A DNA stretch of 10,363 nucleotides from NCBI GenBank assembly GCA_040256005.1, contig JBDZWC010000105.1, positions 1 through 10,363 on the forward strand. Direction: 5' to 3'. This document shows positions 1-10,126 of this stretch, piece by piece. Made by a program: the position numbers and the translations under genes. The notes beneath the pieces are model-generated. The model did no database searches. It saw only the letters and a list, made by a program, of their open reading frames with translations, and had not been told where the DNA came from. The DNA is from Deinococcaceae bacterium (GTDB lineage Bacteria > Deinococcota > Deinococci > Deinococcales > Trueperaceae). The number at the start of each line of letters is the position of its first letter. Within the stretch, counting starts at the first letter, position 1.

Positions 1-1686
1 GAGCACACACCAGTCGAACGCGCCACTACCCGCCATCGCCTCCTGCGTATCGGCGTTCCTAGCCGCGTCGAGCGCGTTCCAGAGGCGACTGCAGATCGTC
101 AGGTCGTAGTAGGCCACGAGGAGGTGCGCGTAGCGTCCGCCCCGCAGAGCTTCCATGCGCATACCGAGCGTGTCCGGTACGCCAAGTAGACCCGAGAGTC
201 CCTCGCGGTCACGCCTGATGCTCAGCCCGGTCATCACAACCGCGGCAGCTCCGAGGTTCAGGCCAGTCCGGAGCAGGAAGGTCAGGAAGCTGCCCAGGAC
301 CGGCTTCGCCTCCAAACCGGCCGAGCCGATCTGGAAGACGTCGGGCACGCTGAAGAAGAGCTGCACCCGCAGCAGCGATGAGCCGACGAAGCCGAGAACC
401 GAACGCGCGTTCACCTGAGCGTCGTCGGGAGCGAACGTGCTTGGCCAGGCCGACCCTGCCGCTAGCAATGTGCCCCATGACGCGAGCAGGAAGCCGGTAG
501 CCAACAGCGCCGCCCAACCGAGTACGCCGCTGCGCAGACGTTCCAGCGATACGAACGGCAAGACACCGCGCTCGATCATCAGCTCGAAGGACGCGCGCGG
601 CGAGATCAGCAGCCACGTCAGCAGCAGCATGCACGCGAGACCTGCTGCGAACGCGATGATTGGCGGGCCCAGCGCGATCACCACCGCCACCGCCACCCCG
701 CTGACCGACAAGGCCGCGATGACTACCGGGCGCAGGCGCGCCTTACTCTCGGACTGCTGCTCCGCGCCGTTCGATAGCTCTTCTAGCGTCTCCTCCAGAG
801 AGTCGCCCCGCGGATCGCCATGTGTGATTCGCATCCTAAGGTAGGGAATCGCCCAATCCCTCAAAGCGAGTAGCGACCGCGTCGTACCGACGGAGTCGTC
901 ACCAGCCGAGCGCCTTCTCAGCAGAACCTCGACAGTGGCGTTTACATCGGCTGTCAACTCGCGGCCCAGATGACCGGCCAGCACGGCGTCGCCTGAGGCT
1001 GCGGCCCGCTCGAGTCGAGTTATCGAATCATCACCTCGACCCAAGCCGTGCGCCCGGTAGAAGGCCGCTCGCATCAGAGTAAGGACGATGCGAACGAAAC
1101 CGATACTGAGAATCAGGCGTGTGAAGAAGACCAGCGACCTGCCGGCGAGGCTGGGCGCATCGCCCGCGAGGCCGAGGTCCAATACGTCGAACAGGTCGAG
1201 GAACAATTCGGTGAACAGCAGGCTGTCGATGGCGTAACGCCACGCCTCCGACCATGACGAGCCGCTCAATAGGCCCGGATAGAACTGCATCACCTTCCGG
1301 AAGAGAACGGCTTGGGCGCACAGGTGGAAGGGCAGGCTGAACGCCGAGATCGCGACAGGAAGATAGGTCACGACCGCAGGACTATCGCGTTTGAGTATGC
1401 CGAACGAGTCACTGGACCTGAGTAGTCGCGCTGCCAACTCTGGCCATACGACCAACCAAGAGAGCAGCGCGAACCCCACAAGCTGCAGGACGAACGACCA
1501 GGCCCCGATTGGGAGCAAGCCGAGGCAGGCCAGGCCGAGCGACGCACCGCCGATCGCCAACCAGAGCCACGTCGGCGTGAGTTGGTAGGCCTCCAGTAGC
1601 GCCCGTAGCTCGACCCTCAGCCCATGCAGGATCGATCCGAGCGTGACCCGCCCGGTACCGCGCCCCGAAGCACTTGGTTCGTTCAA
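1..1686 (-). CDS. Large multi-pass membrane protein with a tandem ~281-aa internal duplication; partial, 3' end lies beyond window position 1
   Basis: Manual translation of the minus frame (codons ending at multiples of 3) shows no stop from beyond 1743 down to 1: MNEPSASGRGTGRVTLGSILHGLRVELRALLEAYQLTPTWLWLAIGGASLGLACLGLLPIGAWSFVLQLVGFALLSWLVVWP...GSGAFDWCVL. It has many hydrophobic helices. Preferred start is TTG at 1686, with GGGGG 7 nt upstream and a TATAGT -10-like box at 1723-1718; ATG 1743 is an alternative. Absent from the ORF track because no stop codon lies in the window. Confidence 0.85.
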   Translation of the reverse strand, partial: MNEPSASGRGTGRVTLGSILHGLRVELRALLEAYQLTPTWLWLAIGGASLGLACLGLLPIGAWSFVLQLVGFALLSWLVVWPELAARLLRSSDSFGILKRDSPAVVTYLPVAISAFSLPFHLCAQAVLFRKVMQFYPGLLSGSSWSEAWRYAIDSLLFTELFLDLFDVLDLGLAGDAPSLAGRSLVFFTRLILSIGFVRIVLTLMRAAFYRAHGLGRGDDSITRLERAAASGDAVLAGHLGRELTADVNATVEVLLRRRSAGDDSVGTTRSLLALRDWAIPYLRMRITHGDPRGDSLEETLEELSNGAEQQSESKARLRPVVIAALSVSGVAVAVVIALGPPIIAFAAGLACMLLLTWLLISPRASFELMIERGVLPFVSLERLRSGVLGWAALLATGFLLASWGTLLAAGSAWPSTFAPDDAQVNARSVLGFVGSSLLRVQLFFSVPDVFQIGSAGLEAKPVLGSFLTFLLRTGLNLGAAAVVMTGLSIRRDREGLSGLLGVPDTLGMRMEALRGGRYAHLLVAYYDLTICSRLWNALDAARNADTQEAMAGSGAFDWCVL

Positions 1687-1777
1687 AGCTGCGCCCCCAA
1701 ATTGGTGACTTCGCGACACTATACGAGGCTCTTCTGGTCGCATCGCCGGGAGAGTGTGGTCCGCTACTCTGGAGCCG

Positions 1778-2269
1778 ATGAACGGGGGCCACCGAGATGT
1801 CAACGCCATCCCAGCCATGACGAAACCGACGTTCGTTCCCGCTGACTTCGAACCGCCCACGGTGCTCGTCACTGAACACTTCCGCCTCGAACCGCTGGGC
1901 CCGCAGCACAACGAGTCCGACCACAAGGCGTGGACATCGAGCATCGAGCACATCAGGTCCACTCCCGGCTATCCGGACGGACGGTGGCCGCCAGAGGGCG
2001 GCATGACGCTCGAGGAGAACCGGTCCGACCTGGAGCGCCACGCTGCGGACTTCGTCGCCAGGAAGGGTTTCACCTTCACCGTGTTGGACCCGGATGGGGG
2101 AGACGTGATCGGTTGCGTTTACATGTACCCGAGCAAGGATCCTCAGTACGACGTACATGTCCAGTCGTGGGTAAGTGCTGATCGGGCGCATCTGGACGGG
2201 CAGTTAGCGGAAACGGTGTCCGCTTGGATCAAGGCGGCGTGGCCGTGGGAGCGCTTGCTCTACAGATAG
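1778..2269 (+). CDS. GNAT-fold N-acetyltransferase-like protein (RimJ/RimL-like)
   Basis: FVPADFEPP..L.TEHFRLEPLGPQHNESDHKAWTSSIEHIR..PG, and F..RKGFTFTVLDP....VIGCVYMYP...V.VQSWV, match a widespread GNAT-like family as I recall it. Start is either ATG 1778 (TACTCT 7 nt upstream) or ATG 1817 (MTKPTFVP). Confidence 0.8.
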   Translation: MNGGHRDVNAIPAMTKPTFVPADFEPPTVLVTEHFRLEPLGPQHNESDHKAWTSSIEHIRSTPGYPDGRWPPEGGMTLEENRSDLERHAADFVARKGFTFTVLDPDGGDVIGCVYMYPSKDPQYDVHVQSWVSADRAHLDGQLAETVSAWIKAAWPWERLLYR

Positions 2270-2284: not shown

Positions 2285-2498
2285 CTACGTCGTGAGAGCC
2301 AATGCCGCTTCGTTGTCCACTTCCGTGCCCACCCAAGCCTCGGTGCAGCCGAGTCGGTTGCCGTGCACGAGCATGAACTCCATCAAACGCCGGCCGATTC
2401 CCAGCCGCCTATGCGTGCTGGCTACGCCGAGCTCGTTGCTGAAAATCTGAAGCGGCTTTCCGGGTGACCAGGTAGATCGGAACTCGCCCCAAGGCCAT
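2285..2498 (-). pseudogene. Degenerate GNAT acetyltransferase, C-terminal half
   Basis: Minus strand reads KPLQIFSNELGVASTHRRLGIGRRLMEFMLVHGNRLGCTEAWVGTEVDNEAALAL then stop, containing GNAT motif A (R-R-x-G-I-G) and N-x-x-A. The upstream 'IYL-HP(D)KP' segment is broken by frameshifts (cac ccg ga- aag ccg) and the N-terminal half is missing. Confidence 0.75.
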
Positions 2499-3715
2499 CA
2501 GCTCAGGTGCCCGGTGACGACCGCGTCAAGCCTCTCGAGAACCTGCCTGGAGCCTTCGACCGCACCGAACTCCTCAACATGCTTGCGCCTCTCGTCCTCC
2601 GACGCGTAGCGGGTCGTCAGCGTCACGCGGGTCGCGCTGTCCTCGGGTTCCAGCGTGAACACCGCACGGTACGGCTCCAGGCCGAGGCTTTCGGAGCCGA
2701 GCTGCGTGAACACGATTCGCACGAAGGGCTCGACGCTCTCGAACTCGTAGACGTTGTCGTAGACGGTGCCATCAGGGCCGCGCATGGCCACGACGAAGCG
2801 GCCGCCGTAACGGATGTCCAGCTCATGGACGTCGCTCGTGAAACCTTCCGGACCCCACCATCTGGCGATCTTGTCGCGCTCCGTCCAAGCCTCCCAGATA
2901 CTTTGAACTGGCGCTTCGATGATCCTCTCCGTGGTGAGGCGCAGTGGATCCGAGGAGACAGCCGCTTGCCGCAGCAGTTCGAGCTGGCCCACGTACGTCA
3001 TGGCCTCGGCGAGGGGTCCCTGTAGGAGGCGCGTTGGTGTGTGAGGAGGCTTCCACCGGACGCGGCCGACTTCCTGGGCAAGGTCGAAGATGACGTCCCG
3101 CAGGGCCGCTGCTTCCTCGTCCAACGTCGGCAGTGGGTCTGCGACGTATGTCTCACCAACAAGATCGGCGCGCGCGGCGCCGATCACGCTACGCATGAGT
3201 CGCACCAATCGCTTGGGCGTGCGGGACTCCTGGCCGACCGTGAACCCAGCGAAGCCGGGCGGGGCACTGCCCAGAGCCTCGAGCGAACGGTACGCGAGGT
3301 TCCCGAGGTACCCCTTCAGGAGCTCAAGGTCAGCGGCCGTTGGCTGCGTATCCGATGCCGCCTCCATGATCTCGAGTCGGTTCCCGAAAGGGTCGTGCAC
3401 GTAGAAGCGGCGAACGCCTGGGTAGCGATCGTCCCACTCGACCTCGGAGCCGTACGATCGAAGTAGCACGGCCAACCAGTCCAGGTCCCGGTAGAGCAGC
3501 GCCGGATGTGCCTTGCGGGCAGGTGCGAAGGCGCGCTCTACGCCTAGGTGGAGCTCTACATCACCCGATTTGAACCAGGCTCCGCCGTTCGCCACCAGCA
3601 TGGCCGGCTTCGGAACCTCGGAGAGGCCGAGGACGCCCGCGTAGAACTCGCGCGCTCGGTCCTCCCCGCCTTCGGGCATGGCCAGCTGCACGTGATCGAG
3701 GGCAATCGGTTGCAT
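2498..3715 (-). CDS. Three-domain fusion: VOC/glyoxalase + DinB-like helical domain + SRPBCC (AHSA1/START-like)
   Basis: N-terminus LDHVQLAMP...AREFYAGVLGL.E..KP...ELHLG...KAHPAL...RFYVHDPFGNRLEI is VOC. Middle LAYR...AP..FA.F...RTP...LLQGPLAEAMTYVGQL.LLR is DinB-like. C-terminus ERIIEAPVQSIWEAWTE...WWGPEGF...D.R.GG.F...M.GPDG is SRPBCC. Start placed at ATG 3715 (MQPIALDH); 405 aa. Confidence 0.85.
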   Translation of the reverse strand: MQPIALDHVQLAMPEGGEDRAREFYAGVLGLSEVPKPAMLVANGGAWFKSGDVELHLGVERAFAPARKAHPALLYRDLDWLAVLLRSYGSEVEWDDRYPGVRRFYVHDPFGNRLEIMEAASDTQPTAADLELLKGYLGNLAYRSLEALGSAPPGFAGFTVGQESRTPKRLVRLMRSVIGAARADLVGETYVADPLPTLDEEAAALRDVIFDLAQEVGRVRWKPPHTPTRLLQGPLAEAMTYVGQLELLRQAAVSSDPLRLTTERIIEAPVQSIWEAWTERDKIARWWGPEGFTSDVHELDIRYGGRFVVAMRGPDGTVYDNVYEFESVEPFVRIVFTQLGSESLGLEPYRAVFTLEPEDSATRVTLTTRYASEDERRKHVEEFGAVEGSRQVLERLDAVVTGHLS

Positions 3716-3868
3716 GGCTTGGTACACGATACCTGGAACCCTGCTGTTGCTCCGGACCAGCCGAAGCGCTACAGGCCGTACCACCTGGCTCCGACGCTAT
3801 TGGGAGCGGCGTTCCTGCAGTGACTTGGCTACGCGTGTGACCCGTCTAGCCGAATCGGGCCCTCTTCA

Positions 3869-4312
3869 TCAACCATGCTCCAACGAGTTCCCGACCCGCT
3901 TAAGCCCGGCCTTCGAGGCGAGTTCGTTGAGGAACCTTTCTCGATCCGCGGGGGAGATCATCACCGTGCCGGTCAGGCCGGGACCGGACACGATGCTCAG
4001 CCTGTCCATAGACAGCGCCGGCGAGGCCAAGGGGTTGCGAGTCGGTTCGACCTTCGTGATGTCAGCCAGTGGGATGCGGGTTCGGACCAGGCCGAATCTC
4101 ACGAGCAAGTGCTTGTCGTTCAGGCCGTAACGCGTGGGGTACACCAGTCCGAAGAGGACGCCTAGGACGAGAACGGATGCCACCACGGCGCCAACGAGGT
4201 CGTCGTTGGAGCCTGACGTCAGCGCCACGATCCAAGCCACGACGACAGCAACGGGCATCGCCCAGATGAGAACCGCCAGCCACCAATCCACTTTCGATGG
4301 GTACCAACTCAT
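3869..4312 (-). CDS. Membrane protein with bacterial PH domain (bPH_4-like)
   Basis: MSWYPSKVDWWL, two TM helices, then TRY.L....L.VRFGL....IPL.DI.KV.PT.NPLASPALS.DRL.I and ISP.DRE.F. GGAGG lies 10 nt upstream of ATG 4312, so the longer ORF-track start at 4552 is unlikely. Confidence 0.85.
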   Translation of the reverse strand: MSWYPSKVDWWLAVLIWAMPVAVVVAWIVALTSGSNDDLVGAVVASVLVLGVLFGLVYPTRYGLNDKHLLVRFGLVRTRIPLADITKVEPTRNPLASPALSMDRLSIVSGPGLTGTVMISPADRERFLNELASKAGLKRVGNSLEHG

Positions 4313-4517
4313 TCGGTTGGACCTCCATTCTGAGAGTACGGTACTCGGTGACGGTTCCCCACATTCGCAGCCTCTTGACGCCCGCCTTGGTGAGCACGTA
4401 CGCGGACAAGACGGGCGCGTCGGCGAGAATGGAGGGCGGCCCACTAAGCACTGTCGCGTAGACGGACTGCAGGTCGGGCTTATCATCGCTTCGAAAGGTA
4501 TCAACGAGGGGACACCG

Positions 4518-5822
4518 ATGATCTGGCGCGTGGTCTTGAGTTTCGCCGTCATAGCTCTCTTGGCTCGCGTCCACGCGGCCGGTCAAGAGGCGTGCGTAGG
4601 GGGTCCTGGCCGACACGCGCAAAGCGTCGGCGGCGAGGTAAAGGGTGAGAACGACCTCTCGATTCGCGTGGCTAATGGCCTGAGTCTGGTCCTGCAACGC
4701 TCTTCACACGGCTGGCGGGTATCGGTTCTGGAGCGGGAGTCCAACGACCTGGTACCGGCCGGACCTTCCGGTCCTGACATCAAGCCGCGGGACATAGAGG
4801 GGTGGCACTTCCGGAACGCCGACAACACGGGCCCGAACTCCGGCGAGATCAACGCGCCCCAGCTCGTGCGCCGCTTCTCGTTCGTCCCTCCTGGTGAAAC
4901 GCATGGCACTACCGGCACCGTTGCCCTCGTCATCTCCGAGTTCGGACTGGCGAACCTTGCGCCGGGACAGCGGGCTTCGATGGTCGACCTGCGGTTCGAT
5001 GCCTGCCTGACCTGGCCGCTGGCGGAGGCCGAGGTCCCGGTTGAGCCTGGAGCCGCCAATCTAGAGTTCCTGCCCGAGGAGATCGAGGTGATGCGTGCCT
5101 GCGGCGTCAGCGAAGAGTACTCTCTCGTGGCCAGGTTCCCACTGCGCCTGTTAGCCGGCGACTTGATAGTCCTCGAGGCAGCTAATGGCTCGCTTCGCAG
5201 CCTTCACTGGGATGGCGCAGGGTTCGTCGTCCACCATCACCGAGGGAGTCGCCTACCGACTCAGGACGAGTCCGTCGTTCTCTTATACGTGATAGCGGCC
5301 AAGGGCGCGGAGTGTGGTCTGTTGCGCCCGTGGGAGGCTGCCAACGTACAGGCGATGGTCGACCAGGAGACCCTCGGTTGGGAAGATTCGAGGTCGCGAT
5401 CCGTGGAGGCCGCGTCTCGCAATAGGCTTGCCGAGACGCTCTGCGACGCCTCGTTCCTAACCGCCTGGATCGAAGGCGCCAGGGCCGGCATGGAGGCCGA
5501 GTACCTCTCGTTGCATCTGGTCGTCTACCGGACGCTCCTGTCGATGCCGGCCCCGCCCGCGTGGTTCAGCGACACGGTCACTCGCACGAACGCCGAGGCC
5601 GACATCGCGGTGATAAGCGAGAAACTGACAGCTCTGGAGGCGTCGGGTGCCCGTCCCGACGGCGGTGGCCCGTGGACCGAGTTCGTCTCGACCACCAGTG
5701 CCGCGGTGGAGCGGTTCGCGCCCCTACTCGACGAAGGCGAAGCGCCACCGGACGTCGCGTTCCTGCTTCCGCGCTCCGTAGTCATCGCCGAGCTGTGGTT
5801 GGCCGACAACGAGCTGGACTAG
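4518..5822 (+). CDS. Secreted hypothetical protein, probably multi-domain
   Basis: GAGGGG RBS precedes ATG 4518. The N-terminus MIWRVVLSFAVIALLARVHA|AG looks like a Sec signal peptide. Contains a conserved-looking PRDIEGWHFRNADNTGPN.G.INAPQ motif. The ORF-track extension to 4134 overlaps the PH gene in antisense and is rejected. Confidence 0.7.
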   Translation: MIWRVVLSFAVIALLARVHAAGQEACVGGPGRHAQSVGGEVKGENDLSIRVANGLSLVLQRSSHGWRVSVLERESNDLVPAGPSGPDIKPRDIEGWHFRNADNTGPNSGEINAPQLVRRFSFVPPGETHGTTGTVALVISEFGLANLAPGQRASMVDLRFDACLTWPLAEAEVPVEPGAANLEFLPEEIEVMRACGVSEEYSLVARFPLRLLAGDLIVLEAANGSLRSLHWDGAGFVVHHHRGSRLPTQDESVVLLYVIAAKGAECGLLRPWEAANVQAMVDQETLGWEDSRSRSVEAASRNRLAETLCDASFLTAWIEGARAGMEAEYLSLHLVVYRTLLSMPAPPAWFSDTVTRTNAEADIAVISEKLTALEASGARPDGGGPWTEFVSTTSAAVERFAPLLDEGEAPPDVAFLLPRSVVIAELWLADNELD

Positions 5823-5847: not shown

Positions 5848-6486
5848 TCACTCGAACACGACGGTCTCTTGGCCGACCTCGAGCTGCCCGTACTTGAGTC
5901 CGCCCACTCGTTCGTAGACCGTCAAAAGCGCGCCTGTGGCGGTGGCCTGCGTCTCGACGAGACGAAAACCACGTGGCATGGTCCCCGAGCCGAACAGTTT
6001 CTTGCCTGCGCCAAGCGTGACAGGGAACTGCCAGATGCGCAGGGTGTCTACCAGGTCTTGAGCCAGGAGAGTCTGCAGTAGATCGCTACTGCCGTGCACC
6101 TGGATCTCGCCGCCGTCTTGTTCCTTCAACGCCCTGACTGCGGCGGGGACGTCGCCTTGGAGCAGGCTGGAGTTCTGCCATTCGACGGTTTTGAGGGTAC
6201 GTGAAGCGACGTGCTTGGGCCTGGTGTTGAGTGCGACGGCGGACTGGTCCTGCGGGTCGGTCGAGTTGGGCCACGACGCTGCGAAGATCTCGTACGTCTT
6301 GCGCCCTAGCAGGAACGCGCCGGCCCGTAAGGTCCACGCCGTCATGCTGTTGACGAAGTCATCGTCCGCGAACGGGACGAGCCAGCCGCCGTGATCGAAC
6401 CCGCCCTCACGGTCCTCGTCGGGCGCGCCGGGTCCCTGCATGACCCCGTCTAACGTCGTGAAGGCGCCGACCACTAGTCTTCGCAT
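5848..6486 (-). CDS. Dihydrofolate reductase family protein (RibD C-terminal domain)
   Basis: MRRLVVGAFTTLDGVMQGPG.P.ED..GGF.HGGW, LLGRKTYEIFA..WP, LN..PK.VASRTL, I.VHGS..L.QTLL..DLVD, PV.LG.GKKLF. Confidence 0.93.
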   Translation of the reverse strand: MRRLVVGAFTTLDGVMQGPGAPDEDREGGFDHGGWLVPFADDDFVNSMTAWTLRAGAFLLGRKTYEIFAASWPNSTDPQDQSAVALNTRPKHVASRTLKTVEWQNSSLLQGDVPAAVRALKEQDGGEIQVHGSSDLLQTLLAQDLVDTLRIWQFPVTLGAGKKLFGSGTMPRGFRLVETQATATGALLTVYERVGGLKYGQLEVGQETVVFE

Positions 6487-6492
6487 GCGTCC

Positions 6493-6498
6493 ACTCTA
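6493..6498 (-). promoter_or_regulatory. -10 box (TAGAGT) of a probable leaderless transcript for the DHFR-family gene
   Basis: Minus strand reads TAGAGT-ggacgc-ATG: TANNNT 6 nt before the start codon, leaving no room for a leader. Confidence 0.5.
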
Positions 6499-6571
6499 AG
6501 CAAGTGGCTATGAGGCGCTGGTGGTGAACAGCTACCCGAGAGTCCGCTAGCATCGCGGCAATGGAGCCAAT

Positions 6572-7906
6572 GTGGACGCGCTGCTCGACTCATCGGCTGT
6601 AGCCATCGCGCGCGCAATACGCTCACGTGAGGTGACCTCGCGCGAGGTCACGCTCGCCTTCCTAAAGCGCATCCGCGAGCGAAATCCGGCGATCAACGCT
6701 GCCGTGCAGATAGCTAATGAGCGGGCACTCGCCGAGGCAGCGAAGGTGGACGCGGCATTGGCTCGCGGTGAACCAGAAAGGCCGTTCCTCGGCGTGCCAA
6801 TCACCGTCAAGGACGTCTTCGACACCGAGGGCATCGTCACGGCCGTCGGCCTGACGGAGCGCCGCGAGTTCGTACCTGATTGTGACGCGGTCGCCGTTGC
6901 GCGTTTGCGCGCCGCGGGCGCAATACTCATCGCGAAGTCCAACTGCCCAGAAGGCGGCGCCGGTGGCGCCACGGACAACCCGGTTTACGGCCGCACCAAG
7001 AACCCGTACGACCTCGCGCGCACCCCGGGCGGCAGCAGCGGTGGCGAAGCGGCGCTACTCGGCGCTGGTTGCTCGCCGCTGGGTCTCGGAAGCGACTCGG
7101 GCGGCAGCATCCGGCTGCCGGCTCACTACTGCGGCGTGGCGGGGCTGAAGCCGACCGCAGGCCGCGTTCCCAATACGGGTGCCTACGACCATCCGGGCGG
7201 GCTAAGCGACGTCAGAACTCAGATCGGCCCCATGTCCCGCCACGTGGAGGATCTGTACCCGGCGCTCAAGGTGATAGCGGGCCCCGACTGGCACGACTCG
7301 GGCGTGGTCGACATGCCGCTGTTGGAGCCAGGAGACGTTTCCATCGCCGGTCTACGCGTCGCGTACATCGAGGACGACGGTGTCTCCCGGCCGACCAAAG
7401 AGACCCGCGAGACGGTCGAAGCGACTGCTCGGCTCCTGGCCGAGGCTGGCGCAGCCGTCGAGCGGGCTATGCCAGACCTCGCCGACGTATGGCCCATAAC
7501 CAGAGCGTTCTGGCAGCTGGACGATGCGAGCGGGGAAGAGGTAGGCGAGCTGTATACGCGCTGGGACGGGTTCCGTAGCCGAATGCTCGGTTTCATGCGG
7601 GGATACGACGCGATCTTGTGTCCGGTCGACCGGCATCCGGCGCCTCTGCGCGGGGTCGACGACCCTGAGCGGTTCTCTTACACCCTTGCGTACAGCCTCA
7701 CAGGCTGGCCCTGTGCCGTTGCTAGAGCCGGAACCTCGCCTGGGAACCTGCCTATCGGGATTCAGGTCGTTGCGCGCCCGTGGAGGGAAGACGTCGCCTT
7801 GGCGGTTGCTCAGTGCATAGAAGTGTCGCGTGATGGCTGGCGCCCCCCAGCGTTCATCAGTTCCGCCGCTAGTTCGAGGGGTACTGGCCATACGTCGGCT
7901 GCCTGA
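6572..7906 (+). CDS. Amidase-signature family amidase
   Basis: GVPITVKD (catalytic Lys), PGGSSGGEAA, LGSDSGGSIRLPAHYCGVAGLKPT (Ser-cisSer-Lys triad), C-terminal LPIGIQVVARPWREDVAL. GTG start with GGAG 5 nt upstream. Confidence 0.95.
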   Translation: MDALLDSSAVAIARAIRSREVTSREVTLAFLKRIRERNPAINAAVQIANERALAEAAKVDAALARGEPERPFLGVPITVKDVFDTEGIVTAVGLTERREFVPDCDAVAVARLRAAGAILIAKSNCPEGGAGGATDNPVYGRTKNPYDLARTPGGSSGGEAALLGAGCSPLGLGSDSGGSIRLPAHYCGVAGLKPTAGRVPNTGAYDHPGGLSDVRTQIGPMSRHVEDLYPALKVIAGPDWHDSGVVDMPLLEPGDVSIAGLRVAYIEDDGVSRPTKETRETVEATARLLAEAGAAVERAMPDLADVWPITRAFWQLDDASGEEVGELYTRWDGFRSRMLGFMRGYDAILCPVDRHPAPLRGVDDPERFSYTLAYSLTGWPCAVARAGTSPGNLPIGIQVVARPWREDVALAVAQCIEVSRDGWRPPAFISSAASSRGTGHTSAA

Positions 7907-8068
7907 TCGGGGTAGGGATTCTCGGCACCTCGGCTAATCCCCGGACGCGCGTGTCAGGCTCACAGCCGCCGTTCCCGTGCCTCGCGATATGGCAAGTGTA
8001 TCGGACATTGTGCAAGCGTCGTACTCGTAAGGTGGTCGATAAAGCCGGCCCTCTCAAGGCTGCGACGG

Positions 8069-8074
8069 TATGAT
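8069..8074 (+). promoter_or_regulatory. Candidate -10 box (TATGAT) for the TIR gene
   Basis: 5/6 match to TATAAT about 40 nt upstream of the TTG start; no recognisable -35. Confidence 0.35.
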
Positions 8075-8113
8075 GGTGCCGGTAGTGCTGTCGGTATATT
8101 GGAGGGATACAGG

Positions 8114-8809
8114 TTGGCTAGATGCACAGCACCAGTACGGGGCCATCGAACTGCAAGCGGAGCAGCAGACTGTCCAGCGTGCGGCGGCCGATACAGAGGC
8201 TATAACGGGTACAGATCGTACTCCTCCCAGTCCTACTACCCGGTCGGAGCCAGCGGAGGTAGCTTGGGCGGCCGAGGCGGGTCTGGAAGCTCCACAAGGC
8301 CGAGGTGGTCGCGACCCGGCTCCTCCGTCGCATACACGTCTGCCGAAGTTAAGGCCCTTACGCCGGTCCGCGTCAGCGTCGAAAAGCAACTGCACCTGCC
8401 CGATCGACGGGACATTTTTCTTTGCCACGCGTGGGACGACCGGCGAGGGGTCGCGAAGGAGCTGCACGACCTACTCGAATCGCTCGGAGTTTCGGTGTGG
8501 TTCAGCGAGAAGGATGTCGTCCTAGGCATGCCGTTGCTTCGCGAGATCGACAGAGGGCTCGCGAGGTCACGAGTCGGAATTGTTCTCGTGACCCCGGCGC
8601 TATTGCTGAGGCTACGTGGCGAGGGAATTGTGGACAAGGAGCTTTCCGCGCTTCTAGCTCGCGATCTCCTAGTCCCTATCGTGCATGACACTACTTACGA
8701 GGCACTTCGTGAAGTCAGTCCACTTCTTGGATCGCGAAGCGGCCTAAATACTGCCGAGGATACGTTGACTAATGTCGCGGGCAAGCTCGCCGAGTTGATA
8801 GCTGTCTAG
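8114..8809 (+). CDS. TIR-domain protein (TIR_2-like) with N-terminal C-x6-H-x8-C-x2-C motif and low-complexity linker
   Basis: RDIFLCHAWDDR...A.EL...LES.GV.VWF.E.D...G..L.REID.GL..SR.GIVLVTP.L is the TIR fold, with the putative catalytic Glu in DKELSAL (codon 8639-8641). Start TTG 8114 has GGAGGG 7 nt upstream; 231 aa. Confidence 0.9.
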   Translation: MARCTAPVRGHRTASGAADCPACGGRYRGYNGYRSYSSQSYYPVGASGGSLGGRGGSGSSTRPRWSRPGSSVAYTSAEVKALTPVRVSVEKQLHLPDRRDIFLCHAWDDRRGVAKELHDLLESLGVSVWFSEKDVVLGMPLLREIDRGLARSRVGIVLVTPALLLRLRGEGIVDKELSALLARDLLVPIVHDTTYEALREVSPLLGSRSGLNTAEDTLTNVAGKLAELIAV

Positions 8810-8918: not shown

Positions 8919-8943
8919 ATTGGGCGGCACGATTCTGCCCAAT
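8919..8943. terminator. Hairpin between the convergent TIR and recombinase genes; possible terminator or protein-binding palindrome
   Basis: ATTGGGCGG-CACGATT-CTGCCCAAT forms a 9-bp stem with one G-U pair, followed by AT-richer ACTGTTATT. There is no clean U-tract. Confidence 0.4.
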
Positions 8944-9037: not shown

Positions 9038-10126
9038 TCACTCCGAATCGATTCCCAAACTCCACTCCCGTACCTCATCGGTATCCTGCGCCGCAGCCAT
9101 ATAGATCTCAGTACTACTCATACTTGCGTGGCGCAGATGGTCACGAACTTTCCGCAGGTCGCTGGTCTGCCGCGCATAGTGCACTCCAGCGAAGTGCCGC
9201 AACCCATGCACGCCCTTGGTAAAGCGCTCAAAGGGCAACCCACGAGCAGACAGCGCCAGGTTCCAAAGCTTCTCGAGTCGCGTATACACACGCGACCGAG
9301 AACGCGTCTCCAACACGAACGGCGCATCTTCGCCGGGTAGGCGAGAGGGCACATCTTGTGAACGGGCAGCCAGGTTCCGTCGCAGCTCCTCGCTCATCGT
9401 CACGGACGCGGTCTTGCCGCCTTTGCCAAACCTCACGGTCAGCCGGCCGCCCCGCAGGTCCACGTCGTCCCAGGTGAGCGACAGCATCTCGGAGACCCGC
9501 AAGCCGGCGTGGGCGCCCAGGAGCAGGATGAGCCTGTCGTCCCAGTCGCGGCTCACGCTGGCCATCCACTCGAGTTCCTCGAGCGTGTACGCCTTCGCCC
9601 TGGCGCGCTCCACTGGCTTCTCGGTGAGCTTGGGTAGGGTGACCTCGGCGAACGGGTCGGCGGTCGAGACCCCGGTCCACCTGAGCGCCTCGTAGAACGC
9701 CCTGGCGGCTGCCACGCGCTGCCGAACCGAAGCCGGCGTGAGGGACTTGGTCGGTTGGCGGCCCTGGCGCCTTTGAGCCTCGACGTGTCGATCCGACGGG
9801 TCGGCCTCGCGCCGCGGGTCGCGCAGCTGCCTCACGTACGCCTCGGCGTCGGCGCGCGTGGGCCGTAGCAGGTCGACGCCGCGCCAAGCCTCCAGGAGTA
9901 GCGTGACGCCCTTGCGGTACGAGGCGATCGTGTTGGCCGAGCGCTGGCGAGCCTCCAGGAACGCCCGCGTGACCAGCCACAGCGAATCATGGTCGCGTTC
10001 AGAGACGGCCTTGGCCGCGAAGCGCCGGCGCTCGGCGTCGCTGAAGCCGATGAAGCGATCCACGAGGGCCAGCTCGGCCTGCGGCGTGTAGCGGACGAGG
10101 GAAGCTGACCTACGAGGCATGGCCAC
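9038..10126 (-). CDS. Tyrosine recombinase/integrase (XerC/D-like)
   Basis: Catalytic set intact: GLRVSE (R), GKGGK (K), HGLRH (HxxR), HLRHAS (H), STEIY (Y). N-terminal SANTIASYR...AARAFY matches the core-binding/SAM-like domain. Start is GTG 10126 or ATG 10120. Confidence 0.93.
   Translation of the reverse strand: MAMPRRSASLVRYTPQAELALVDRFIGFSDAERRRFAAKAVSERDHDSLWLVTRAFLEARQRSANTIASYRKGVTLLLEAWRGVDLLRPTRADAEAYVRQLRDPRREADPSDRHVEAQRRQGRQPTKSLTPASVRQRVAAARAFYEALRWTGVSTADPFAEVTLPKLTEKPVERARAKAYTLEELEWMASVSRDWDDRLILLLGAHAGLRVSEMLSLTWDDVDLRGGRLTVRFGKGGKTASVTMSEELRRNLAARSQDVPSRLPGEDAPFVLETRSRSRVYTRLEKLWNLALSARGLPFERFTKGVHGLRHFAGVHYARQTSDLRKVRDHLRHASMSSTEIYMAAAQDTDEVREWSLGIDSE

Follow-up and report, generated by a model that had tools for sequence, protein, structure and literature searches.

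Among described bacterial TIR proteins, the closest to the one analysed here are the enzymes of the AbTir/TcpB group and a set of TIR domains that have been assayed in isolation. For AbTir, the available part of a preprint (10.64898/2026.10.06.757174) describes an N-terminal coil that inhibits its NADase, and a single experiment (n=1) in which AbTir did not protect E. coli. In the tables and text available from Weagley et al. 2022 (PMC9092222), 28 of 152 domains are active overall. Nine isolated domains in Table S2 carry the motif of the family studied here; seven of them yield linear ADPR and two yield nothing. These domains of about 138 aa were overexpressed in E. coli, and we counted Table S2 only; the rows marked 'Inactive' in Table S1 are other proteins. 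The same source lists expression values of the Proteus member in mouse caecum. All cyclase TIRs examined in the accessible part of Manik et al. (10.1101/2022.05.07.491051) have an aromatic residue four positions before the glutamate, a rule that covers cyclic products. Finally, Wang et al. 2024 (PMC11350192, as far as available) screened clones against 111 phages, found 20 of 32 inactive and name a tail fibre as the trigger of TIR-VI. By the available text of their preprint (10.64898/2025.12.03.692087), Yirmiya et al. took stand-alone TIRs out of their screen.

We analysed a stretch of 10,363 nucleotides (the window), which is an entire contig and overlaps by 55 bases with contig C69. A preliminary description, made from the sequence alone, had placed a stand-alone TIR gene and its parts in it, and a codon-by-codon check of 8114-8809 found all of these positions correct. 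The features are as follows.

8101..8105, + strand: GGAGG, Shine-Dalgarno-like by sequence, 8 nt 5' of the TTG
8114..8809, + strand: stand-alone TIR gene, 231 aa, TTG start at 8114, TAG at 8807-8809
8123..8182, + strand: C4-x6-H11-x8-C20-x2-C23 module, putative metal (zinc) site, no known family; ligand codons C4 8123, H11 8144, C20 8171, C23 8180-8182
8183..8296, + strand: low-complexity linker, predicted disordered; first half basic with periodic Tyr, second half a Ser/Gly spacer
8297..8407, + strand: conserved ordered segment, residues 62-98 (PRWS, YT, helix 76-91), pLDDT 81-90
8408..8806, + strand: TIR_2 domain of the AbTir/TcpB/PdTIR group, by Pfam and structure matches
9038..10126, - strand: convergent tyrosine recombinase, context only; related recombinases at 10 of 81 loci
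7910-8000 in L027, L054, L055, L056, L060 and L072: promoter-like examples upstream of homologs

Homologs begin with MARCTAP at the equivalent residue, which supports the TTG start at 8114; an upstream alternative, TTG 8099 (236 aa), was rejected. In many homologs a TTGA...TATCAT-like promoter ends a few bases 5' of the ATG and there is no Shine-Dalgarno sequence, a hint of leaderless transcripts. A loose pattern, applied without a shuffle control, finds this arrangement in 24 of 79 homologs and suggests that it travels with the gene. At the TIR gene itself a promoter scan returned 0 sites, a terminator-like hairpin at 8919-8943 was no better than shuffles, and a search for flanking repeats or att sites gave only chance-like pairs.

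The GC3 of the gene is 0.63, compared to 0.75-0.81 in six neighbouring genes, and the gene was absent from the 40 related genomes searched; we therefore regard it as acquired cargo. The recombinase stays under every NCBIfam cut-off and borders the housekeeping-type genes (e.g. SMC, DnaJ) that fill the first 9 kb of C69; for the TIR protein, too, no NCBIfam model reached its cut-off. The remaining ORFs of the window match, in Pfam, an amidase, RibD_C, bPH, glyoxalase-AHSA1 and GNAT, or are large and without a family; the glyoxalase-like/AHSA1 fusion ORF and the two large family-less ORFs lie at 2498-3784 (-), 4134-5822 (+) and 1-1962 (-). Neither the 11 ORFs scanned in the window nor 15 ORFs of the continuing contig form a defence island, and they contain no cyclase, Argonaute, ThsA or NLR partner, as had been stated for the window.

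The family is very large. In a protein search, relatives of the TIR protein numbered at least 8000 when clustered at 90% identity, the best of them at 72-83% identity. A genome scan found a relative encoded in 503 of the best 600 stretches; the best 80 loci were kept (63-80% identity, 12 phylum labels). Note that these 80 are the loci closest to the query, and all conservation figures derived from them are biased upward.

The preliminary description had the TIR domain begin at 8411 (D100), in agreement with the Pfam TIR_2 match at residues 101-194 (E 6e-14). The nearest solved structures, by PDB sequence search and Foldseek, are TcpB, PdTIR, BtTir and AbTir (E ~1e-11 to 1e-14), and the mean pairwise identity of the domain over the 80 closest loci is 0.83. 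The glutamate proposed as catalytic, E176 (8639-8641), aligns with the BtTir motif ELNGMVARE and is kept at 80 of 80 loci, which favours the assignment; the equivalence was taken from BtTir, the pairwise alignment with AbTir being displaced by gap placement. The residue four positions before it (172) is Ile at 77 loci and Val at 3. Since it is not aromatic, linear ADPR is the predicted product. That the TIR is an NAD+-cleaving enzyme had been stated for bacterial TIR domains in general; the seven active domains among nine in the published Table S2 bear this out for homologs, and NAD+ hydrolysis by the protein of the window itself would be expected by homology to them.

Next, we considered the part of the protein in front of the enzyme. 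Conservation of the N-terminal Cys and His residues in homologs had been named as decisive: C4, C20 and C23 are present at 80 of 80 loci and H11 at 79, as are T5, A6, P7, G10 and P21 at all 80. The pattern recurs in 119 of the 119 nearest clusters (with the final Cys replaced by His in 2), and C4, H11 and C20 are kept by representatives down to 38-59% identity (93 rows). Such near-invariance means that the pattern does not arise by chance, and we consider it quite probable, judging from conservation, that C4, H11, C20 and C23 form a metal site. The term zinc knuckle fits only in part: the Cys/His pattern stands, whereas C-x6-H-x8-C-x2-C is not the CCHC retroviral knuckle, and Pfam returned no match to the module. 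Its fold is uncertain in the AlphaFold model. A single-sequence fold of residues 1-36 reached a pLDDT of 57 and was set aside, and the best match in the Atlas (0.80, to an unnamed cluster, with module models at pLDDT 54-63) is a lead only. A weak search for the module fused to longer proteins, among those of 406-2000 aa, gave no candidate. We found no description of the module in the literature covered, largely that outside subscription journals, and a search by accession gave no match.

Residues 2-23 have a mean pairwise identity of 0.80 over the 80 closest loci. The module is thus about as conserved as the enzyme (0.83), while GC3 ranges from 0.16 to 0.78 across the same loci, which suggests that it recognises an invariant ligand. 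Identity so high across phyla is unusual among phage sensors, which speaks against such a role. Seven sister TIRs (P0153, P0189, P0209, P0219, P0223, P0226 and P0233; 42-63% identity over the matched part) have Cys-free, mostly charged, helical-looking N-termini; going by these sequences, the front end is a swappable part of this TIR clade. The sister clade lends itself to comparisons of product and gating, and two of its seven members have Trp four residues before the glutamate.

Between module and enzyme there are two different segments. The linker proper is 26-50 aa long (median 41, 80 loci), contains 2-8 Tyr (typically 5) and consists of 36% Ser, 22% Gly, 13% Tyr and 10% Arg, with 0.5% Asp+Glu and 0.7% Gln. 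The Tyr residues lie in its first half (364 of 403) and are periodic: 177 of 323 intervals have a spacing of 3, and 51 of 80 linkers contain YxxYxxY, compared to 3.5 in full shuffles and 8.8 in first-half shuffles (maximum 16). The linker had been called Tyr- and RGG-rich. The former holds, whereas RGG is no family trait, being found in 6 of 80 linkers versus 14.5 in full shuffles, that is, more rarely than expected. Disorder prediction, which had been proposed as a check, agrees with a flexible linker (AlphaFold pLDDT below 50 at residues 26-58). The model becomes confident from residue 61, and the only helices ahead of the TIR domain are 14-18 and 76-91. The second segment, residues 62-98, was missed in the preliminary description; W65 and Y74 are present at 80 of 80 loci, the identity of the segment is 0.66, and its helix portion is shared with the sister TIRs that have Cys-free N-termini.

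Family members are found on plasmids, in islands and in prophages. Of 5426 complete E. coli genomes, 109 carry the gene, and in one E. coli island slot it is the sole cargo. It is also found in 210 plasmid records (47 with at least 80% coverage, the N-terminus often being masked as low complexity) and in 27 viral contigs; complete phage records gave just 2 weak partial matches. Plasmid hosts include Klebsiella, Bacillus and Acinetobacter, and among the hosts with a name there are many bacteria that live freely in the environment. On a Klebsiella plasmid (L081:4498-8316) the gene stands alone between two ISNCY transposase genes, an arrangement like that of a composite transposon. The GC3 of the genes follows that of their flanks (rho 0.68, 73 loci) and the protein is conserved, so that the protein stays constant while its DNA adapts to the hosts. 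From a quick and poorly resolved tree of the 80 loci we draw no claims about donors.

An exact match to an E. coli CRISPR spacer was seen in the plasmid allele of the gene (L087:901-933, L084:5029-5061). On the targeted strand, AAG lies directly 5' of the protospacer, which we take to be the consensus type I-E PAM. The chromosomal allele has 6 mismatches to this spacer. About 257 E. coli genomes (366 minus 109) have a short match only, and the 21 such matches listed are all this same piece, 20 of them annotated as CRISPR; the chromosome of the one spacer-bearing strain searched gave no hit to the TIR gene.

To see whether the gene has a partner, ORFs around 81 loci were compared all against all. 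Apart from shadow frames and recombinases (10 loci) no neighbour recurs and no conserved partner gene exists, which agrees with the stand-alone gene originally proposed. Together with the lone copy between insertion sequences and the sole-cargo island slot, this supports a one-gene unit. Enrichment of homologs in defence islands had been suggested as a test. Scanning up to two ORFs per side gave 235 ORFs at 78 loci (L005 had none, the duplicate L023 was dropped), and defence genes were counted by hand where a hit had E < 1e-24 and covered some 60% of the model; generic hits to kinases, desulfurases and intron-type RTs were excluded. Of the 235 neighbours, 26 are defence genes (18 of 78 loci). 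In the control, 93 ORFs at arbitrary chromosome sites in eight related genomes of one order, unmatched for mobility or taxon, there is 1 (Fisher p 0.0015). With the generic hits included the counts are 29 versus 3 (p 0.012). The neighbours include restriction enzymes, a retron, Gabija, Lamassu, pAgo-SIR2, CRISPR, IetAS and DRT, among others; an Argonaute pair adjoins the gene at 1 of 78 loci only. This association may reflect mobile cargo in general, and at 60 of the 78 loci a strong defence neighbour is missing.

In prophages the gene occupies cargo positions, beside an integrase or repressor and among head and tail genes. At L121 it lies between P2-type gpA and portal genes, a slot described as a proven anti-phage hotspot in the available part of PMC9122126; the motifs of the family were not found in the supplements of PMC13069673 or in the available accession tables of PMC9122126. 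Three roseobacter loci (L011, L022 and L023, ~6400-8700) have the same block ahead of the TIR gene, consisting of a CapP-type gene (ImmA/IrrE-like), one HTH gene and one small ORF, and the TIR proteins of L022 and L023 are identical despite coming from different genera.

An E. coli relative has probably been tested against phages already. Both primers of cluster 8 of Wang et al. 2024 (PMC11350192) match exactly around the family gene in L127, with this gene as the only annotated one between them; at the five other E. coli island loci of the 6 checked, the reverse primer has two mismatches. Judging by these matches, the E. coli member is probably cluster 8. The identification is likely rather than certain, because the slot holds many other cargos and the other primer pairs were compared by eye. 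The Cys positions of the TIR-V and TIR-IX models differ from those of our family, so that it should be TIR-VI or one of the 20 inactive clones. We found no published phage protection for any identifiable family member.

What, then, does the presumably gated enzyme respond to, and is it a defence enzyme at all? A trigger in general stress (DNA damage, oxidation, metal displacement) or in incoming plasmid DNA, with dormancy or death as the result, would employ the same gated NADase. A near-invariant module spread over 12 phyla would suit a universal cue, the cluster 8 screen was likely negative, as was the AbTir test, and on an E. coli plasmid katG adjoins the gene, to which the CapP-type neighbour in roseobacters may be added. 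These stress neighbours are anecdotal, however, and the prophage cargo slots with the P2 hotspot, as well as the enrichment beside defence genes, speak against this reading; we hold a stress or plasmid trigger to be unlikely, though the most credible of the alternatives. The preliminary description had activation driven by a FUS-like linker. FUS-type prion-like domains are long tracts of Q, G, S and Y in which Tyr is frequent, accompanied by RGG boxes. Phase separation of such a linker, or a short kinked-sheet Tyr zipper, would be in line with its composition and Tyr spacing, and 30 of 80 linkers come within one residue of SYSSYG, compared to 11 in shuffles (maximum 19); SYSSYG is a segment of FUS (10.1101/153817). 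On the other hand, exact matches to four known segments number 1, 0, 0 and 0 of 80, near-matches to SYSGYS are within the shuffle range, and the linker of the window is two residues away from each segment. With a median of 41 aa, some 5 Tyr, hardly any Gln and RGG below shuffles, the linker is a poor fit to a FUS/RGG condensate, and we think activation of this kind improbable.

The PADLOC search that had been suggested did give a hit: PDLC00424, named 'ThsB1|ThsB', matches at full length (1-231 versus 1-234 of 234, E 5e-117), which shows that a model of this very family exists. Its name could mean that the protein is a Thoeris signal producer whose effector is encoded nearby or acts in trans, and at L037:911-3180 the family gene is immediately followed, on the same strand, by a ThsB-like TIR gene and a double-SLATT gene. 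The label itself could come from such a separate TIR and SLATT pair. Thoeris effector domains STALD and ThsA_Macro were found in none of 50 host genomes (for 50 of the 80 loci) nor in the genome of the window, while in another sample of 201 genomes the same searches found them in 7 and 4, respectively. There is no ThsA among the 235 neighbours, newer Thoeris effectors are covered only by the comparison of ORFs around the 81 loci, in which no neighbour recurs, and the homologous domains make linear ADPR. Context and product thus contradict the label, and a role as ThsB is highly unlikely. Hardly more probable is a TcpB-like effector directed at the host, or cargo that plays no part in defence. 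The structural kinship with TcpB and AbTir and the Klebsiella, Bacillus and Acinetobacter plasmids would suit an effector; the free-living hosts do not, and the available part of the AbTir preprint (10.64898/2026.10.06.757174) reports that even clades labelled virulence effectors score high for defence. Neutral cargo does not go well with the strong purifying conservation.

In summary, we favour, with a probability of roughly 55%, the reading that the gene is a one-gene defence system, its product an enzyme of the AbTir/TcpB group that depletes NAD+, carried as mobile cargo and gated by its Cys/His module. The TIR domain would cut NAD+ into nicotinamide and linear ADPR by means of the glutamate equivalent to E176, as shown in homologs. 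By analogy to AbTir, activity should require head-to-tail assembly of TIR domains, which the N-terminal 98 residues would hold off as long as the cell is uninfected. Zinc would be bound by C4, H11, C20 and C23, which together with the basic stretch of periodic Tyr would act as a sensor. As its ligand we tentatively put exposed nucleic acid of an invader ahead of a phage protein, for which the chances seem rather low. The ligand would cluster the N-termini, the Ser/Gly spacer would let the TIR domains assemble, and NAD+ would fall, so that the cell is arrested before the phage or element can complete its cycle; abortive infection and filament assembly by the family are thus what we infer. Against this defence reading count the two inactive domains among the nine in the part of PMC9092222 used here (Table S2), the likely cluster 8 screen and the single AbTir test. 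A bolder version, which we put forward as speculation, makes the protein a one-gene immune receptor used throughout bacteria, whose CHCC metal module and Tyr-periodic stretch would sense a universal sign of invasion, most likely exposed nucleic acid, and nucleate TIR filaments via a short kinked-sheet zipper. If true, signalosome assembly driven by low-complexity sequence would have a minimal counterpart in bacteria.

Compared with known systems, the family shares with the AbTir/TcpB group that it consists of single genes with a regulatory N-terminal part, and AbTir, TcpB (BtpA), PdTIR and BtTir are its nearest folds (rmsd ~2 A, 27-30% identity). This group has a coiled coil, whereas our family has the Cys/His module and the Tyr linker instead, and the coiled coil of CC-TIR proteins (AbTir, TcpB, TirS) has no counterpart in a disordered stretch at residues 26-58 with two helices around it. 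By alignment, W204, W227, R178 and Y207 of the group would correspond to Ile, Val, Leu and Lys, respectively, in the family, and the product is ADPR rather than 2'cADPR. The TIR effectors of CBASS, Pycsar, SPARTA and Avs work with a partner (cyclase, Argonaute or STAND) or carry a fused sensor domain, neither of which our family has, and from Thoeris ThsB it differs by the lack of the aromatic residue before the glutamate, by having neither ThsA nor a conserved partner, and by its product. Retron XII (E 1e-10) and PDC-S66 (E 3e-24) are related in the TIR domain only; their N-termini differ, and our gene has no reverse transcriptase. With TIR-V and TIR-VI as well as TIR-IX, as presented in the accessible part of PMC11350192, it has in common that a TIR defence consists of one gene.

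The ADPR-producing TIRs PROPEN_03896, PCC8801_1430, A0A1M5Q011 and META5FDAC71F_537940 in the available tables of Weagley et al. 2022 (PMC9092222) belong to the same family, 6 of the 9 parent proteins have the N-terminal Cys/His module, and the near-identical E. coli plasmid allele is 63% identical to the protein of the window. As far as this source goes, it assayed TIR domains and not the N-terminus or a role against phages. The novelty originally claimed is accordingly reduced: the family is known, from the PADLOC model, the enzyme data and the probable phage screen, and what appears to be new is the Cys/His N-terminal module. With the enzyme activity on record, the question narrows to what the 98-residue front end senses, and the answer would bear on the AbTir/TcpB group as well.
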